Shown here: positions 4,234 to 62,978 of the stretch, one piece after another
Numbering within the stretch: the first letter of the stretch is position 1
How the letters are laid out: each line of letters starts with the position of its first letter
From: Candidatus Omnitrophota bacterium
GTDB taxonomy: Bacteria > Omnitrophota > Gorgyraeia > Gorgyraeales > Gorgyraeaceae
Assembly: GCA_043814965.1 (NCBI GenBank)
Contig: JBDRJN010000033.1
Coordinates: 1,379-65,378 of the forward strand
Length of the DNA stretch: 64,000 bases
Direction: 5' to 3'
Translations under genes and position numbers: made by a program
The notes under the pieces: generated by a model
The model's input: the letters and a program-made list of their open reading frames with translations, nothing else
Database searches by the model: none
What the model was told of the DNA's origin: nothing

Positions 4234-4311
4234 CGGGGAGTAGCTCAGTTTGGCTAGAGCGCTGCGTTCGGGACGCAGAGGCCGCTGGTTCAAGTCCAGT
4301 CTCCCCGACCA
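4234..4311 (+). tRNA. tRNA-Pro (anticodon CGG)
   Basis: Manual cloverleaf: acceptor CGGGGAG/CTCCCCG, D-arm GCTC-AGTTTGGCTA-GAGC, anticodon arm CTGCG-TTCGGGA-CGCAG, T-arm GCTGG-TTCAAGT-CCAGT, discriminator A, encoded CCA. Confidence 0.8.
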
Positions 4312-4324
4312 TAAGAATAGTTGT

Positions 4325-4402
4325 GGGGAGTGGACTTGTATTTTGTTAGAGCGTCCGCCTTGGGCGGAAGGCCGCTGGTTCAAGTCCAGTCTCCCCGACC
4401 AT
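4325..4402 (+). pseudogene. tRNA-like pseudo-copy: degenerate 5' part, hairpin in place of the anticodon arm, then an exact 33-nt copy of the tRNA-Pro 3' end
   Basis: 4369-4401 (aggccgctggttcaagtccagtctccccgacca) is identical to 4279-4311 of tRNA-Pro. No D-stem can be formed. The anticodon position holds tccgc-cttgg-gcgga (5-nt loop), the same hairpin type as at 3949. Confidence 0.5.
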
Positions 4403-8391: not shown

Positions 8392-11138
<2,747 letters not shown>

Positions 11139-13894: not shown

Positions 13895-15903
13895 GTAGAC
13901 CAAGACTGATAGACGTAGCTGTCAATTGTCCTGTGGAAGGGCTTTTTACATATTCTGTCCCGAAAGAATTAGAAAACGATATAAAAATAGGTTCTTTGGT
14001 AAAGGTGCCTTTTGGAAAAAAGAACCTGACTGGTTTTGCTGTTAAGTTCTCTTCAAATACCTATATAAAAAATATAAGGCCAATAACCGATATCATAAAT
14101 AAGGATATCACCTTGGACCCTATAATATTTGAGCTTTCCAAATGGATCTCGGAGTATTACTACTGTTCTTTGGGAGAGGCTATATCCGCTACTATGCCAG
14201 GAGTGCTTAAAAAACACTTATCCAAAAAAAGAGCCGGTAAGAAAAAAGGCAAAGAAGAGGAGTTTGAGTATAAAGACGGCTCGGATAAACACTTAGACCC
14301 TAATAAAGAACAAAGAGATGCCCTGGCTTCTATCAAAGATTGTATTGATAAAAAACTTCATAAAGTATTTCTCTTGCATGGTGTTACTGGAAGCGGTAAG
14401 ACAGAAGTATATTTGCAATCGATCCAGCATGCGTTGCACCTTGGTAGATCAAGCATTGTGCTTGTCCCTGAGATATCACTTACACCTCAGACCGTTGCCA
14501 GGTTCAAGGCAAGGTTTGGAGATAAGATCGCAGTGCTGCATTCGAGGCTCCTGGGTTCAGAGAGGCTTAGCGAGTGGCAGAGGATCAAAAAAGGAGAGGC
14601 CCGGATAGTGGTAGGCGCAAGGTCCGCTGTCTTTGCGCCGTTAACTGATCTTGGCTTGATAGTAGTAGATGAGGAACACGAGACATCTTATAAACAGGAG
14701 AGTGTTCCAAGATACAACGCAAGGGATGCTGCTATCAAGAGGTCAGAACTATCGAATGCGGTCACTATCCTTGGCAGCGCCACACCATCCCTTGAGACAT
14801 TCTATAAAGCCCAGAACAAACTTTATGTCTTGGTCGAACTGCCTGAAAGAATAGATTCGAGGCTGATGCCAAAAGTAGATATCATAGACATGCGCGATGA
14901 GGCAAACAGGAAAAAGACGCCCTCTATATTCAGTTATTCTTTGAAAAGCTGGATAGAAAAAGATATTGCTCAGGGAAAACAGGTCATGTTATTTTTAAAC
15001 AGGAGAGGTTTTTCTACTTTTATAAGTTGTAGAAAATGCGGGCATGTGATCACCTGCAAAAAGTGCAGCGTAAGCCTCACATATCATTTTTATAAGAAAA
15101 AGCTGATCTGCCATCATTGTAGTTATAATATAGACCCGCCTAACGTTTGCCCGGAATGTAATTCCAGTTATGTTAAATATTGGGGCATGGGCACTGAAAG
15201 AGTAGAAAGCGAACTCCATAGGTATTTTCCTAATATAAGGATAGCTCGCATGGACACGGATGCTACCAATAAAAGAGGGTCGCATGAAAAGGTCCTTTCG
15301 AAGTTCAAAGACCACAAGATAGATATACTTATTGGTACGCAGATGATAGCAAAGGGCCATGATTTTCCAAAAGTCACTTTAGTGGGGGTTGTCTCAGCTG
15401 ATACTGCGCTTAACCTGCCTGATTTTAGATCTGGCGAGAGGACGTTTAATCTCCTGACACAAGTCGCTGGCCGTGCTGGAAGAAGCGATCTCGGCGGAAG
15501 GGTTATTATACAAAGCTACACCCCGCATCATTATGCTATACAAGCAGCAAAAGACCATGACTATGGTACTTTTTATGCCAAGGAAATAGAACTGCGCAAG
15601 GAACTTATGCTCCCGCCTATCACTCATATGGTGAGTCTTACCTTGTGCTCAAGGAACGAGGAAAAGGTCTTAAAAATAGCTGAAGCATTGAGAAATAAAT
15701 TCAAGAAATTAGACAAGTCCAACAAGATAGATATTGTCGGGCCTGCGCCAGCCCCTATATCGCGCATGAAAGGCCAATATAGATGGAACCTATTCCTGAA
15801 GTCAAAGGCAGTCGAAGATATTATACCGCTATTAAAAAAGACCCTTTCTTTTCGTAAAAAAGAAAAGGGCGTTGCCGTGATAGTCGATGTGGACCCATAT
15901 TAA
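13891..15903 (+). CDS. priA: primosomal protein N' (PriA helicase)
   Basis: Walker [19 protein letters not shown] box, CxxC zinc-finger pairs, and a C-terminal helicase domain. Confidence 0.9.
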   Translation: MSRPRLIDVAVNCPVEGLFTYSVPKELENDIKIGSLVKVPFGKKNLTGFAVKFSSNTYIKNIRPITDIINKDITLDPIIFELSKWISEYYYCSLGEAISATMPGVLKKHLSKKRAGKKKGKEEEFEYKDGSDKHLDPNKEQRDALASIKDCIDKKLHKVFLLHGVTGSGKTEVYLQSIQHALHLGRSSIVLVPEISLTPQTVARFKARFGDKIAVLHSRLLGSERLSEWQRIKKGEARIVVGARSAVFAPLTDLGLIVVDEEHETSYKQESVPRYNARDAAIKRSELSNAVTILGSATPSLETFYKAQNKLYVLVELPERIDSRLMPKVDIIDMRDEANRKKTPSIFSYSLKSWIEKDIAQGKQVMLFLNRRGFSTFISCRKCGHVITCKKCSVSLTYHFYKKKLICHHCSYNIDPPNVCPECNSSYVKYWGMGTERVESELHRYFPNIRIARMDTDATNKRGSHEKVLSKFKDHKIDILIGTQMIAKGHDFPKVTLVGVVSADTALNLPDFRSGERTFNLLTQVAGRAGRSDLGGRVIIQSYTPHHYAIQAAKDHDYGTFYAKEIELRKELMLPPITHMVSLTLCSRNEEKVLKIAEALRNKFKKLDKSNKIDIVGPAPAPISRMKGQYRWNLFLKSKAVEDIIPLLKKTLSFRKKEKGVAVIVDVDPY

Positions 15904-15971
15904 AATAGGGACACATCCCCTTTTTTACCTATTTTTTAATTTTTTTAAAAAAAGGGGATGTGTCCCTATTT
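15903..15971 (+). terminator. 25-bp perfect inverted repeat hairpin after priA, flanked by T-runs
   Basis: aaaatagggacacatcccctttttt ... aaaaaaggggatgtgtccctatttt. Confidence 0.65.
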
Positions 15972-16042
15972 TAAAACTGTATTGTAACAGTTTGTGAAGT
16001 GTGCTAAAATAAAAAATACTCGCAGTTAATATAAGGAGATGC

Positions 16043-24156: not shown

Positions 24157-24226
24157 GTGTATATTTATAGAATTATACAAGTTAGTTGTTAGTTTGTATT
24201 GTACCTAGTTGGGTAGGTTTTTTAAC

Positions 24227-24447
24227 CATAGCAAGGTCCTTCCTAGTAAGCTCAGGTGAAATTTTTCCCTCATCTCGAAACTTCGGAACTCGGGGTCGTC
24301 TTTTAAGGGAGCATTTTATATAGGGCTAAAAAAACTCGGCAGATTCTCTATGTATGGCCTTAAACAGTTTTTAGCCTATATTTAAAAGCTAAAATACCCA
24401 GTAAAAGACTAAAATTTCAATTTGCTTACTAGGAAGGACCTTGCTAT
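24227..24447. mobile_element. MITE-like ~220-bp element with 24-bp perfect terminal inverted repeats ATAGCAAGGTCCTTCCTAGTAAGC
   Basis: Left repeat at 24228-24251 is the reverse complement of 24424-24447. No ORF inside. The interior carries motifs (gctcaggtgaaattttt; aaaagactaaaatttcaattYgctYac) found again at 2318 and 56436. Confidence 0.55.
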
Positions 24448-24643
24448 TGTTATGGCTAACTAGAGTTCTGTCTTCAGTTATGTAGGTTAACGCGAGGTGT
24501 TTGATGATAGGTGGCGCAATATGATGTGTCACCTAAATGTTCAAATATTATAATAAGAATATATTTTTTAGTTGATTTGAGGGGGGTAGTATGTTATATA
24601 ATAGTAGCCTATAGATCATATAAGATATATGGAGGTTAGATAT

Positions 24644-28890: not shown

Positions 28891-29862
28891 ATGGTTAAAT
28901 ATATTATAAAAAGAATAATACATCTTATACCTCTTTTAATAGGGATAACTATTATTACATTTTTCGTAATACACCTTGCCCCGGGCAGGCCTACTGACCT
29001 TGAGGGGCAGTTCAATCCAAAGGTGTCGCTTGAAGCAAGGGAAAGGCTTGAGCATCTCTATGGGCTGGATAAGCCTATCCCTATACAGTACATTGATTGG
29101 TTGAAGAGGCTTATAAAGTTTGACTTTGGCGTGAGTTTTATTGACTCCAGGCCTGTAGTGGATAAGATATTTGAACGCATTCCAGTCACGCTTACTATAA
29201 ATTTCTTTTCAATGTTCTTTATACTGCTTATAGGCATACCTATAGGTGTAAGTTCTGCCTTGAAAGAAGGAAGCGCGTATGATAGGTTGATGACATTGTT
29301 CGTCTTTATAGGATTTTCCGTGCCTACGTTTTGGCTTAGCCTTATACTCATGGATATTATAGGTGTAAGGTGGGGGGTACTTCCTATATCAGGAATAAAA
29401 TCATTCGAATTCGACAAGTTTAATTATATTGAAAAGGTGATTGATATGGCAAGGCATATGATACTGCCTGTATTTGTCTCAGCTTTTGGAGGCTTAGCAG
29501 GCATATCCCGTTATATGAGAAGCAATATGGTAAGCGTATTAAAGGAAGACTATATACGTACTGCCAGGGCAAAAGGCTTAAGTGAAAAAGATGTATTGTA
29601 TAAGCATGCTTTAAAAAATGCATTACTTCCGATAGTGACTATATTGGGGCTTTCTATACCGGGCCTGATCGGAGGAAGCGTCATATTTGAATCTATATTT
29701 GGTATCCCGGGGATGGGGAGGCTTTTTTATGAATCAGTGATGTCAAGGGATTACCCTGTCATCATGGGTGTGCTTTTTATAGGCGCAAACCTGACCCTCA
29801 TAGGAAATCTCCTGGCTGATATAATGTACGCATTTGTGGACCCGCGTATAAAGCTGGAATAA
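28891..29862 (+). CDS. ABC transporter permease (OppB/DppB-like)
   Basis: Six transmembrane helices and the EAA permease loop. Confidence 0.8.
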
Positions 29863-29991
29863 GAGTAGGTTGTAAGCAGTATATGCAGTTTGATCTTTGT
29901 AATGCATTAGATAGTGGATAACGCTGATCAGTTTAACTGTGTAGTTGTCAAGCCTAAAGAAAAGCGTTGCTGGTTCGAGCGGGCACGGTGT

Positions 29992-30157
29992 CTTTCTGCT
30001 GGTGAGGGGCCTTCAAAAAGACGCTTCGCCAGCATTAGTGATTTGTAAAGTTGGGCTTCGCTCCGTTTTGTTTTGACAGGCTAACTTTATAGTAGTGCAG
30101 TATCTATTGGTTACGCAAAACAAAAAGGCTTTTTTCATGCCCCTCACCAGCAGAAAG
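29992..30157 (+). ncRNA. conserved structured repeat, copy 1 (candidate small RNA or MITE): ~125-nt core closed by inverted repeats tctttctgctggtgaggggc / gcccctcaccagcagaaaga
   Basis: Core cttcaaaaagacgctYcgcc...ggcttcgctccgttttgttttgacagg...gcaaaacaaaaaggcttttttca is ~85% identical to 54273-54393. It has an internal stem cgttttgttttg / caaaacaaaaag followed by a T-tract. The closing stem differs between the two copies but stays complementary. Confidence 0.45.
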
Positions 30158-30273
30158 ACGAACGAGAAACGGCACTGAGCGAAGAAGAGCCACGCTGGGG
30201 CAATCAAGCGTCTTTTTGTAGGCTTGACAGATACAGTTGCAGTATTATTTTTACCAGAGATAAACATTAGAAT

Positions 30274-31065
30274 ATGAATAAGCTAATATTTTTTGGAATA
30301 GTCATAGTGGGTTTTTTCGTAATGGTGGCTATCTTTGCGCCATTTTTAACCCCCTGTGATCCTGGAGAGATAGATATTGATAATATATTGGTAGGCCCTT
30401 CAAGAGCGCATATCTTTGGTACAGATAGCCTGGGAAGGGACTTATTTGCGAGGATGCTTTATGGTTCAAGGATATCTCTTTTAGTGGGGTTGATAGCAGT
30501 CGGCATAGCTAGCTTTATAGGTATAATACTTGGTTCATTGGCCGGATATTATGGCGGGTGGGTAGATAGATCTATTATGAGGCTTGTAGATATCATGCTT
30601 TGTTTCCCGACATTTTTCCTGATACTTTCTGTGATAGCATTGATGGAGCCGAGTATTATTAATATCATGGTAGTAATAGGTGTTACTAGCTGGATGGGGG
30701 TTTCAAGGCTGATAAGGGCCGAGATATTGAGCTTAAAAGAGAGGAATTTTATATACGCTGAAAAAGCAATAGGCGCAAGTGACTTCAGGATAATAACCAG
30801 GCACCTTATCCCCAATGCAATAGCGCCGGTCCTGGTAAGTATTACTCTGGGTGTGGCAGCAGCGATACTTGTAGAGTCGAGCTTAAGTTTTCTTGGTATA
30901 GGCGTGCAGCCCCCTACTCCTAGCTGGGGAAATATACTTAGCGAAGGAAAATCAGTCATGGGAGCTGCGTGGTGGATGATGCTTTTTCCTGGAATGGCTA
31001 TATTTATAACAGTACTTGGATATAATCTATTGGGAGAGGGCCTGAGAGAAAGATTTTTAAAATAA
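30274..31065 (+). CDS. ABC transporter permease (OppC/DppC-like)
   Basis: Permease fold with the EAA motif region. Confidence 0.8.
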   Translation: MNKLIFFGIVIVGFFVMVAIFAPFLTPCDPGEIDIDNILVGPSRAHIFGTDSLGRDLFARMLYGSRISLLVGLIAVGIASFIGIILGSLAGYYGGWVDRSIMRLVDIMLCFPTFFLILSVIALMEPSIINIMVVIGVTSWMGVSRLIRAEILSLKERNFIYAEKAIGASDFRIITRHLIPNAIAPVLVSITLGVAAAILVESSLSFLGIGVQPPTPSWGNILSEGKSVMGAAWWMMLFPGMAIFITVLGYNLLGEGLRERFLK

Positions 31066-32792: not shown

Positions 32793-32818
32793 GTAGGGGA
32801 GCCTTAAGGCTCCCCTAC
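32793..32818. repeat. REP-like GC palindrome GTAGGGGAGCCTTAAGGCTCCCCTAC, copy 2
   Basis: Immediately after the oppF-like stop. Confidence 0.7.
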
Positions 32819-32978
32819 ATTGTGGATAACTTCTAACCTGGTTAGCACCCAAGTAGAACGTCTACCTATATACAGTCTTGCCTTGACAAACCCCCTAAAA
32901 TCAGTAAACTTTTTATACGTCTATATAAATATATATAGTTACTATATATAATACATATGAGAAAGGAGAATTTTTGGC

Positions 32979-47078: not shown

Positions 47079-49073
47079 ATGCCGAGATTTAAATTAGTCA
47101 GTTCATTTAGGCCAGAGGGCGACCAACCTAAGGCGATAAAGGAAATAGTCGAAGGCTTAAAAAAAGGCTGCAATGCCCAGACTCTATTGGGGGTCACTGG
47201 CAGCGGTAAGACTTTTACTATGGCCAATGTGATAGAGAGGGTCCAGAGGCCTACGCTTGTCATATCTCACAACAAGACGCTCGCAGCCCAGCTTTATAGT
47301 GAATTCAGGGAGTTCTTTCCTAATAATGCAGTAGAGTATTTTGTGAGTTATTACGACTATTACCAACCCGAGGCATATGTCCCGCATACTGATACTTATA
47401 TCGAAAAAGACGCCTCAATAAATGACAATATAGACAGGCTAAGGCTCAGGGCTACTAGCGCTCTGATGTCAAGGAGAGATGTGGTGATAGTCTCAAGCGT
47501 GTCGTGTATATATGGATTGGGTTCTCCAGAGGACTATAAAGAGCAATTATTATTTCTAAAAGAAGGGGACAGTATAAAGATCAAGGATCTATTGATAAGC
47601 CTTGTAAATATCCATTATACAAGGAATGACATTGATTTCAGGCGTGGATGTATGAGGGTCAGGGGAGATATAGTCGATATATTTCCAGCATATGAAGAGA
47701 CTTGTTTCAGGCTGTATTTTTTTGGGGACAAGGTCGAGAAGATAGATGAGATAGACCCATTGACAGGAAAGACTTTAAGCAATGTAGAAAAGATAGCCGT
47801 ATATCCTGCAAAGCATTTTGTCACAACAAAAGAGAGATTGGACAAGGCCATAGAGACCATAAGGATAGAGCTGGAAGAAAGAGTAAGAGATCTTAATGAC
47901 CAGAATAAGCTTCTTGAGGCGCAGCGTCTTTATTCCAGGACCAATTATGACATAGAGATGCTCAATGAGATAGGCTATTGTAATGGTATAGAGAATTATT
48001 CAAGACATATAAGCGCCAGGGCGCCTGGCTTGAGGCCTAACTGCCTTATTGATTATTTCCCGGAAGATTTTCTTACTATAATAGATGAGAGCCATGTCAC
48101 ACTTCCTCAGCTTAGGGGTATGTATAAGGGCGACAGGGCACGTAAGCAGGTATTGGTAGATTATGGGTTCAGGCTGCCTTCTGCGCTCGACAACAGGCCT
48201 TTAAGTTTCGAGGAATTTATGGATGTTGTAGGCCAAAAGACATATGTCTCAGCTACCCCATCGGATTATGAACTAGAGAATTCCAGTCAGGTGGTAGAAC
48301 AGCTGATAAGGCCAACAGGACTTATAGACCCTGAGATCATAGTAAGGCCTGTAAACGGACAGATAGATGACCTGGTCGAGGAAATAAAGTATAGGATCGA
48401 TAAAGATCAAAGGGTCCTTGTGACTACATTGACTAAAAGGATGTCAGAGGACCTGGCAAGCTATCTCTCGGGGCTTAAATTAAGAGTCAAGTATATTCAT
48501 TCTGAGATCAATACCATAGAGCGCACAGAGATACTCCAGGACCTTAGAAAGAAGAAATTCGATTGTCTGGTAGGTATAAATCTTTTAAGAGAAGGCCTGG
48601 ACTTGCCTGAAGTGACTTTGGTCGCAATATTGGATGCTGATAAAGAGGGTTTTTTAAGGTCATGGTCGTCTTTGATACAAGTCGCTGGCCGGGCTGCGAG
48701 ACATGTGGATGGAAAAGTAATAATGTACGCAGATACACTTACAAAATCCATGGAAAGGGCAATAAGAGAGACCAATAGGCGCAGGGTCAAACAGTTTGAA
48801 TTCAATAAAAAACATGGCATTACTCCGAGATCTATTGAAAAGGCGATAAAAGAAGGGATAGAAAGCGCTAAAAAGGCTGAGGAGATAGTCATGGATTCAT
48901 GCGGCCAGACAGAAGATGAATTTGAAAGAGAGTCATTGATATCCGAGTTACAGAAAGAGATGGAGCTCTGCGCAAGGAACTTGCAGTTTGAGCGCGCAGC
49001 AGAATTACGCGACAAGATAAAAGAACTAGAGACGTTTTCCAACCCAATAAGGAAACTGTCCCAAACCCAATAA
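47079..49073 (+). CDS. uvrB: excinuclease ABC subunit B
   Basis: Walker [11 protein letters not shown], helicase motifs, beta-hairpin, and C-terminal UvrC-interaction coiled coil. Confidence 0.9.
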
Positions 49074-49086
49074 GGAAACTGTCCCC
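49041..49086 (+). repeat. 23-bp tandem direct repeat x2 spanning the uvrB stop codon
   Basis: aacccaataaggaaactgtccca repeated; followed by a partial inverted copy (tttccttattg) and a second short tandem repeat tcggatgtctt x2 at 49151-49174. Confidence 0.7.
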
Positions 49087-49189
49087 TTTTATTTATATGA
49101 CATTTTCCTTATTGAGGAAAGGGCACTTTCCCGAACAGCTTGGAAAACGTCTCGGATGTCTTTCGGATGTCTTTATTAAAAAATAGGAC

Positions 49190-54194: not shown

Positions 54195-54258
54195 TATTCT
54201 TTCTGTTAGGCAAAGGCCTACTAAAAACAGTTCTAATCTGATTAATAAGTTGTTTTAG

Positions 54259-54407
54259 CTGGCAAGGTCTTCAAAAAGACGCTCCGCCAGAATTAGTGAT
54301 TTGTAAAGTTAGGCTTCGCTCCGTTTTGTTTTGACAGGCCAACTCTACAGTAATGCATGATCCGTCAGTTGCGCAAAACAAAAAGGCTTTTTTCAAGACC
54401 TTGCCAG
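54259..54407 (+). ncRNA. conserved structured repeat, copy 2: same core as 30011-30137, closed by ctggcaaggtcttcaaaa / ttttcaagaccttgccag
   Basis: Core ~85% identical to copy 1 with the same internal stem plus T-tract. The closing helix has a different sequence but still pairs. Confidence 0.45.
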
Positions 54408-54429
54408 CTAAAACAGCACTTATTATTAT

Positions 54430-56494: not shown

Positions 56495-56520
56495 GTAGGG
56501 GAGCCTTAAGGCTCCCCTAC
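56495..56520. repeat. REP-like GC palindrome, copy 3
   Basis: GTAGGGGAGCCTTAAGGCTCCCCTAC. Confidence 0.7.
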
Positions 56521-56571
56521 ATTATATAAGTCGGTAGTCGGTAAATAAGTCGGTAATCGGCAGGGGAGTCA

Positions 56572-56597
56572 GTAGGGGAGCTTTAAAGCTCCCCTAC
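56572..56597. repeat. REP-like GC palindrome, copy 4
   Basis: GTAGGGGAGCTTTAAAGCTCCCCTAC. Between copies 3 and 4 lies the tandem repeat taagtcggta(g/a)tcgg x2. Confidence 0.7.
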
Positions 56598-56719
56598 CTT
56601 AAATAAGGTTTAGGTGAGAGCGAGAAAAAACGAGAGTAAGATTTTCACGCTGGGAAAATTTTACGTCCTCGAAAACAGAACACACTGATAGATAGGGTGT
56701 AATAATATAAAAATAATTA

Positions 56720-61619: not shown

Positions 61620-62563
<944 letters not shown>

Positions 62564-62630
62564 TTTGATAGAGTTTAAGGTAGTGTAGGATTCGAATGGA
62601 GTCCGCTATATACGACGAATAGGAGTATAT

Positions 62631-62691
62631 GTTTAGCGGACGGATGGCCGACCCGCCCAAAGGCGGGCGCCGAATCCTCCTCTGCCCACCA
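62631..62691 (+). repeat. tRNA-Tyr-associated element: conserved module tttagcggacggatggccgacccgcccaaaggcgggcgc plus an exact 21-nt copy of the tRNA-Tyr 3' end (CGAATCCTCCTCTGCCCACCA)
   Basis: 62671-62691 is identical to 62539-62559. The preceding ~38 nt are near-identical to 62871-62908 downstream of tRNA-Thr. Confidence 0.7.
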
Positions 62692-62772
62692 AAAATTTTA
62701 TTATACAAAATTTTTGGTGAGGTCTCGTCCGTCAGTGAAACTGACGAGACGGACCCACCATGATTTTATTAA

Positions 62773-62848
62773 GCTGGCGTAGCTCAATAGGCAGAGCAAT
62801 TGATTTGTAATCAATAGGTTGGAGGTTCGATTCCTCTCGCCAGCTCCA
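62773..62848 (+). tRNA. tRNA-Thr (anticodon TGT)
   Basis: GCTGGCG/CGCCAGC acceptor, GCTC-AATAGGCA-GAGC D-arm, ATTGA-TTTGTAA-TCAAT anticodon arm, GGAGG-TTCGATT-CCTCT T-arm, encoded CCA. Confidence 0.85.
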
Positions 62849-62870
62849 TAATTTTAGAAGTAGAAGCTTA

Positions 62871-62929
62871 TATAGCGGACGGATGGCCGACCCGCCAAAG
62901 GCGGACGCCGATTCCTCTCGCCAGCTCCA
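62871..62929 (+). repeat. tRNA-Thr-associated element: the same conserved module plus an exact 21-nt copy of the tRNA-Thr 3' end (CGATTCCTCTCGCCAGCTCCA)
   Basis: 62909-62929 is identical to 62828-62848. Module tatatagcggacggatggccgacccgccaaaggcggacgc matches the Tyr-associated copy. Confidence 0.7.
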
Positions 62930-62978
62930 GATCTTTTTAAAAGCATAAGCTCCATAGTAAACTGTGTGCGAGGTTTTT

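Follow-up and report, generated by a model that had tools for sequence, protein, structure and literature searches.

A probable MITE-like family of structured, nested modules in Candidatus Omnitrophota, with one copy between oppB and oppC

In the window (the whole 64-kb stretch of DNA analysed in this study; coordinates refer to its plus strand unless stated otherwise), a structured repeat is flanked by two opp genes, one OppB-like (28891-29862) and the other OppC-like (30274-31065, ATG at 30274), which raises the question of what such a sequence is doing inside an opp operon. An initial annotation had offered three options: a small RNA gene, an intra-operon attenuator, or a non-autonomous mobile element family. 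The genomic setting that it described is borne out by Pfam, by which the genes around the repeat form an OppA-B-C-D-F set. The only open reading frame across the repeat (30013-30267, minus strand, 84 aa) gave no match in a Pfam search. The mobile element is the best supported of the three options, by multiple copies, sites that are empty in relatives, terminal inverted repeats (TIRs) and flanking direct repeats. It is probable that the repeat is a module of a small, non-autonomous, ORF-less, MITE-like family in Candidatus Omnitrophota, which was inserted between oppB and oppC. The family is a new one; it is neither an opp regulator nor a new RNA class.

Sequence and fold of the repeat

The two copies in the window had been described as ~85% identical. 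Copy 1 (30008-30142) and copy 2 (54266-54400) are 87% identical without gaps and 88.5% identical by blastn, and each of three core motifs, 23-27 nt in length, has exactly two occurrences in the window, with none expected. Neither nhmmer nor a covariance model detected a further full copy in the 64 kb. The closing arms are 90% complementary over 31 nt in copy 1 (29990-30020 / 30129-30159) and 96% complementary over 27 nt in copy 2 (54251-54277 / 54389-54415), and their sequences are unlike between the copies; an outer helix that is paired in both copies yet divergent in sequence had been proposed correctly. When folded, the two copies form uninterrupted runs of 21-23 pairs (z = -6.7 and -5.1 relative to shuffled sequences).

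Exact-word scans of genome and metagenome collections returned true homologues from Candidatus Omnitrophota contigs only, several of them at contig ends, as expected for a dispersed repeat. With a covariance model, about 20 homologues were found (20 matches on the sense strand, scoring 89-200 bits, in 292 kb of Omnitrophota sequence). A search of Rfam matched no family: the window at gathering thresholds gave tRNAs only, copy 1 at E <= 10 gave noise hits only, and the loci of four relatives gave one tRNA only. A literature search on Omnitrophota non-coding RNAs or repeats found nothing relevant.

The consensus of the conserved unit, termed module A, is a three-way junction with the helices P1, P1b, P2 and P3. 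P1 is the closing helix, formed in copy 1 by a 5' arm at 29989..30010 (TGTCTTTCTGCTGGTGAGGGGC, first letters TGT) and a 3' arm at 30139..30160 (GCCCCTCACCAGCAGAAAGACG). The conserved core between them (30011..30137) contains P1b, a short helix of the form RAAAAG / CUUUUY (30015-20 / 30129-34), P2 (about 30023-30061), which carries a variable loop, and P3 (30063-75 / 30116-28), which reads CCGUUUUGUUUUG...CAAAACAAAAAGG and has a loop of ~40 nt. In copy 1 this internal stem is CCGTTTTGTTTTG / CAAAACAAAAAGG, with one G.A mismatch.

The cttttttca following the internal stem had been called terminator-like, and this reading was abandoned. In the fold, the T-tract supplies the 3' strand of P1b; its CTTTTTT pairs with AAAAAG at 30015-20 instead of forming a free tail. 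The pairing covaries from G-C to A-U in other copies, the U-tract strand is 100% paired, and a terminator scan made no call at copy 1 or copy 2. An intrinsic terminator was rejected on these grounds. The SPRITE repeat of Streptococcus pneumoniae is likewise a dispersed repeat with a stem and then a T-run, and resembles a rho-independent terminator (PMC3184786). Module A shares this arrangement, but differs from SPRITE-type repeats in its covarying pairing of the T-run with an upstream A-run, its A/U-rich stem and its loop of ~40 nt.

The covariation that had been claimed from two copies was examined with 12-14 homologues. In a first alignment of 14 sequences and 41 pairs, 17 of the 41 pairs were changed on both sides and 94.5% of the cells were paired; no shuffle out of 500 scored as high, and slid controls reached only 6-11 pairs. 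The homologue searches used an 18-mer from P3, by which invariance of P3 was built in. A copy in L085, found independently through synteny, was therefore added to obtain an unbiased count. With this copy (13 sequences), 21/41 pairs were changed on both sides, again with 0/500 shuffles as high and slid controls far below, and all five helices had at least one compensated pair, including a G-C to A-U change in P3. Conserved pairing with divergent sequence is thus confirmed. The sequences at the junctions are kept even in the L085 copy, while loops and distal stems vary. The impression that the core exceeds coding genes in conservation was discarded as partly an artefact of exact 18-mer searches, since identity falls to ~68% in the unbiased L085 copy.

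Insertion sites, termini and direct repeats

The oppB-oppC spacer of the window measures 412 nt (29864-30275). In four relatives (L021, L067, L070 and L071) the oppB stop and the oppC start overlap (ATGAATAA / TTGAATAA) and there is no spacer. L021 shares synteny with the window over 24.5-32.7 kb, where nucleotide identity is 70-72%, and its overlap reads cTTGAATAA; for L067 (Ca. Gorgyraea atricola) the overlap ATGAATAA was seen in the sequence, and for L070 and L071 it follows from gene calls. With four relatives lacking any spacer here, the whole 412-nt spacer is an insertion. This composite (29864..30275), in which module A is nested within a host element of a type termed X, has eroded outer ends, with boundaries approximate to within a few nt, and folds as one nested hairpin (-141 kcal/mol).

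The composite is flanked by a duplicated target, GAATAAG, whose left copy (29857..29863) holds the oppB stop TAA at 29860-29862 and whose right copy (30276..30282) overlaps the oppC start. The duplication keeps the oppB stop on the left and the oppC start on the right. The composite probably landed in the overlapping stop and start codons, duplicating its target, so that both genes stayed intact. The direct repeat is perfect over 7 nt only, longer versions being degenerate or non-significant. A duplication of ~40-55 nt of the oppB 3' end within copy 1, for which a MAFFT alignment looked suggestive, was rejected (local score 9, shuffle mean 9.7). In another Omnitrophota lineage, the oppB-oppC junction of L068 (7287-7372; also L069) carries an 86-nt insert rich in CGCGAATA palindromes. 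Since this insert is unrelated to copy 1, the junction has been hit independently.

These empty sites bear directly on the possibility that copy 1 is an sRNA gene in its own right, or an attenuator of the opp operon that sets OppC expression relative to OppB. Its position on the coding strand between oppB and oppC, its strong predicted fold and the T-run after the internal stem would suit such a role. However, the overlap of oppB and oppC in four relatives contradicts this reading, and other copies occur in both orientations beside unrelated genes. Moreover, the T-run is paired and covarying, the terminator scan is negative, and the one promoter-like site (TTGACA-16-TATTTT, 30224..30251), 23 nt upstream of the oppC ATG, is at chance level (1 found, 1.1 expected). 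An opp-specific RNA is therefore very unlikely.

Copy 2 is a solo module-A unit (54251..54415, core 54269-54395) with perfect 19-nt TIRs, TGTTTTAGCTGGCAAGGTC...GACCTTGCCAGCTAAAACA (TGT...ACA), in the spacer between mnmA and larE. This spacer is absent in L086 and 55 nt long in L087, and both are empty of the unit. Only a weak direct repeat (9/16) flanks copy 2, whose palindrome runs beyond the TGT/ACA ends into the flanks, to 54243 / 54425, which is unpredicted by simple cut-and-paste insertion. A diverged solo module A, the ~68% identical copy mentioned above, lies at 9650-9810 in the mnmA-larE spacer of L085, whose LarE is only 67% identical. The closing helices of copy 2 and of this L085 copy both start with TGT and end with ACA.

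In relatives, module A lies within ORF-less units of 300-480 nt, and the units overall range in length from 165 to 480 nt. The ends of the relatives' units, TGTAATACTTTCAATGTTAGGTAACAC / TGTACTATTTGAATAGTTAGGTAACAC (inverted orientation), again have the form TGT...ACA, with imperfect TIRs of ~26 nt. When direct repeats were scored with the element ends fixed at TGT / ACA, they peaked sharply at 15-16 nt: 12/15 in L019 and L025, 14/16 in L030, 11/16 in L057, and 13/16 with one gap in L022. None was seen at L037 or at the solo copy of L085. Because their sequences differ between loci, the direct repeats are taken as target duplications and not as an attachment site. The copies adjoin unrelated genes in both orientations, the majority being co-oriented with the flanking genes. 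The initial annotation had argued against a transposon from the variability of the inverted repeat, and had named target duplications as the sign of a MITE. The argument fails, since TGT...ACA ends and direct repeats of 15-16 nt are found on the units, and the sign that it had named is present around the units. The features of a MITE are thus found together: small non-coding units, TIRs, target duplication, and dispersed copies with orthologous presence and absence.

The termini also suggest what may have moved the units. Members of the ISTde1 subgroup of the IS1202 family generate 15-17-bp direct repeats, and their inverted repeats start with 5'-TGT and have a second conserved block further in (bioRxiv 10.1101/2022.12.17.520857). 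The Omnitrophota elements resemble them in their TGT...ACA ends and 15-16-nt direct repeats, but differ in that none of the copies was found to have a transposase gene inside or nearby, so that the link is drawn from end and duplication signatures only. Among the Omnitrophota loci examined there was no autonomous element or transposase with matching ends and no IS1202-type transposase, the sole transposase-family gene being an unrelated Y1_Tnp in L086. Scans of viral contigs with the terminal repeat and the core gave chance matches only, or none. It is plausible that a DDE transposase acts in trans on these elements with 15-16-nt staggered cuts; the enzyme would be of IS1202 type (ISTde1 subgroup), with IS481- or IS3-type enzymes as alternatives.

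An origin as a REP/REPIN or IS200/IS605-derived palindrome mobilised by a Y1/HUH transposase, or as an integron attC-like site, was also considered, as the element is rich in hairpins, L086 has the Y1_Tnp gene and REP-like hairpins of the GTAG...CTAC type occur elsewhere in the window. Y1 transposases, however, do not yield 15-16-nt direct repeats or TGT...ACA ends, module A lacks a GTAG/CGTC tag, and no attC R'/R'' boxes, cassette array or integrase are present, and such an origin is extremely improbable. Retron, attC, REPIN and IS200/605 candidates had been rejected on similar grounds (no RT or integrase nearby, no arrays, and direct repeats that are not of their kind). A 'guide' role, with the variable helix matching the flanking target or direct repeat, was dropped after no link was seen by eye in L019 and L030.

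Nesting and reassortment of modules

A ~165-175-nt unit, consisting of the module A core and a long closing helix, is probably the building block of the MITE-like elements. Module A occurs solo, with the closing helix providing the TGT...ACA ends, nested in the hairpin element X, or beside the modules B and C. The modules A, B, C and X are nested and reassorted, and they exemplify modular nesting of structured units.

Copy 1 illustrates the nested form. The outer helix of X has its 5' arm at 29947..29972 (GTCAAGCCTAAAGAAAAGCGTTGC), which pairs with 30200-30230 in the MFE fold, and its 3' arm at 30200..30230. The two arms are kept in L087 (4756-4796 and 5110-5152, respectively) around a different module. 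The cassette boundary CGAGCGGGCACGGT (29976..29989) is identical in L022, L037, L051, L055, L085 and L087 and is inverted in L025. A partial inverted third copy of the core 5' end had been reported within copy 1. The match does exist, as CTACAAAAAGACGCT on the minus strand of 30207-30221 is one mismatch from the core 5' end, but it is really part of the 3' arm of the enclosing X stem, which pairs with 29947-29972.

The long-form copies (copy 1, L022, L037, L051 and L055) have common boundaries outside P1, namely CGAGCGGGCACGGT on the 5' side and, on the 3' side, GACGAGCGAGG... together with a stub of module B. L087 has the X flanks and boundaries of copy 1, but with module C inside, and in L085 the boundaries and outer stems of X are found without A inside, adjoining a solo A. 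In L025 (5887-6345), P1, P1b and P2 of module A are kept, P3 is re-sequenced yet paired, and module C lies in the P3 loop. L037 and L055 have identical P1 helices with P2 loops that match at 26/39 positions, whereas copies 1 and 2 have nearly identical P2 loops (21/23) and cores with very different P1. The units are therefore mosaics that arose through nesting or recombination.

The same observations might suggest that only the 127-nt core is mobile and inserts into the middle of palindromes, such as terminators or hairpin elements, the closing stems being target DNA. In addition to the near-identical cores and different P1 of copies 1 and 2, the core lies within different hairpin hosts, and the empty copy 2 spacer of L087 contains a hairpin, AACAACTTGACA / TGTCAAGTTGTT. 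On the other hand, P1 of different copies is recognisably homologous (GCTCTGGCAGGSCC and variants), there is no palindrome at the empty oppB-oppC site, and the mosaics are accounted for just as well by gene conversion or by recombination among copies. Mobility of the core alone is distinctly improbable, and the MITE-like unit with its own closing helix is preferred.

Further modules and small inserts were also seen. In L001 (3420-3470), L007 and L031, short repeats GAGCYTGTCGAAGGAC with small hairpins are inserted inside module A at one fixed position, after AAAAGACG; L031 has several repeats of this type in tandem, which may be another tiny mobile hairpin. The window holds a solo copy of module B (2519-2764), closed by 36-nt arms, in a 641-nt spacer (2228-2868). 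It is homologous to L019 630-870, L018, L030 and L085 4704-4846 and includes a canonical hairpin with a T-run, GGTCGACAC...GTGTCGACC GAGTTTTTT; this spacer gave no Rfam match. The spacer at 24157-24629 is 473 nt long in the window and 72-111 nt in L067, L068 and L070, and it contains a hairpin-closed element (24223-24452, 29-nt arms, 97% complementary) and an end resembling a terminal repeat (24521-24552). Since L021 has an A-bearing element in the matching spacer, the same spacers are colonised repeatedly.

Maintenance of the helices and related elements

The compensatory changes had been taken as the signature of a selected RNA structure. The changes themselves are well supported (21/41 pairs), but their attribution to RNA is not, as the mismatches in P1, which is almost purely Watson-Crick, comprise 4 G.U and 4 A.C (hand count on the duplexes). 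Strong covariation alone is no proof of RNA function, since palindromic DNA elements can give an equal signal. The recent copies in L001 and L007 carry single uncompensated changes of both kinds. Between close pairs of copies P1 is unchanged though the loops differ, and between distant pairs P1 and the loops have diverged to the same extent. A strand-neutral process (DNA hairpin or cruciform, quasi-palindrome correction) fits the helices at least as well as selection on RNA. The helix arms may have been kept complementary in such a manner, through the formation of DNA hairpins or cruciforms, through template-directed correction of quasi-palindromes, or because the ends are recognised symmetrically. 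Recognition of terminal repeats alone fails to explain the perfect complementarity of the variable mid-arms, or the conserved junctions.

Sense RNA folds are usually 10-27 kcal/mol stabler than antisense folds. This could reflect RNA-level selection or strand-biased mutation; as the G>C skew of the window is strong, mutation bias could explain the stabler sense folds. Module A may possibly have an RNA function. By analogy with known elements, a co-transcribed copy would form a long, near-perfect hairpin, with a possible effect on processing or mRNA stability.

The strongest form of this idea is a cis-acting structured RNA whose pairing is selected at the RNA level for processing, stability or insulation, for example as an RNase III substrate that uncouples the flanking mRNA, with transposition serving for spread only. 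It overlaps the MITE-like explanation and differs in how the helices are maintained and in whether the host benefits. Compensated pairs in all five helices, at a level matched by none of the 500 shuffles, conserved junctions beside variable loops and distal stems, the predominance of co-oriented copies, the stabler sense folds, and the presence of a diverged copy in the same mnmA-larE spacer of a genome with a LarE of only 67% identity are all in its favour, and Correia and ERIC elements act likewise. Against it, G.U is no commoner than A.C in P1, and a helix almost free of wobble pairs is unusual among RNA helices. Copies are found in both orientations, close relatives have empty sites, which speaks against a locus-specific requirement, and different modules colonise the same spacers, so that a shared location need not mean orthology. 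Selection at the RNA level is therefore conceivable but rather doubtful.

The modules A, B and C might also be functional RNAs carried by a DDE-type transposon, either as mobile non-coding RNA genes useful to the host or as an RNA or folded-DNA cofactor of transposition, for which the non-coding RNAs of IS200/605 and IS110 elements offer an analogy. Such a role would account for the conservation of the three-way-junction core, for the compensated helices of every domain and for the boundaries CGAGCGGGCACGGT / GACGAGCGAGG that recur around different modules, and it would provide an example of non-coding RNA domains dispersed by transposition; it is considered unlikely.

Bacterial MITEs with hairpins at the RNA level include bcr1 of the Bacillus cereus group, Correia/NEMIS/CREE of Neisseria, ERIC/IRU of enterobacteria and YPAL/RU-2 of Yersinia; compensatory changes have been reported for bcr1, and RNase III and RNase E have been implicated for Correia/CREE and ERIC, respectively (PMC3184786, PMC2229807, PMC2649163). 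The family described here resembles them, as they are small (100-450 nt), ORF-less, multi-copy and intergenic with long predicted hairpins, are often located within operons and co-transcribed, and have inverted repeats, target duplications and filled or empty sites between relatives. It differs from them in its Omnitrophota host, its TGT...ACA ends and its direct repeats of 15-16 nt instead of 2-5 nt (TA in Correia and ERIC, 5 bp in bcr1). Furthermore, its core is a non-palindromic three-way junction, and several structured modules are nested and reassorted. If the MITE-like interpretation is right, this is the first description of such a family in Candidatus Omnitrophota, with 15-16-nt duplications that point to transposition of the IS1202/ISTde1 type, and it accounts for the excess length of several spacers in a genome that is otherwise compact. 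Such repeats should not be taken for operon-specific riboregulators.

Other repeats were noted in the window. Four REP-like palindromes GTAGGGGAGCCTTAAGGCTCCCCTAC (GTAG...CTAC) lie downstream of genes (2275-2303, 32793-32821, 56495-56523 and 56572-56600). They resemble GTAG-tagged REPs, which are linked to RAYT transposases (PMC3733652); the Y1_Tnp protein of L086 is encoded beside larE. The 3' portions of tRNAs are duplicated 80-130 nt downstream at 4279-4312 / 4369-4402 (100% identical), 62539-62569 / 62671-62701 (87%) and 62828-62855 / 62909-62936 (89%), and the pattern resembles what small insertions or integrations at the 3' ends of tRNA genes would leave behind. Two other palindromes are present: an imperfect inverted repeat of 55 nt at 49029-49153, within the 49.1-kb spacer, and one of 27 nt at 15900-15974 that is perfect, lies between A and T runs and looks like a bidirectional terminator.
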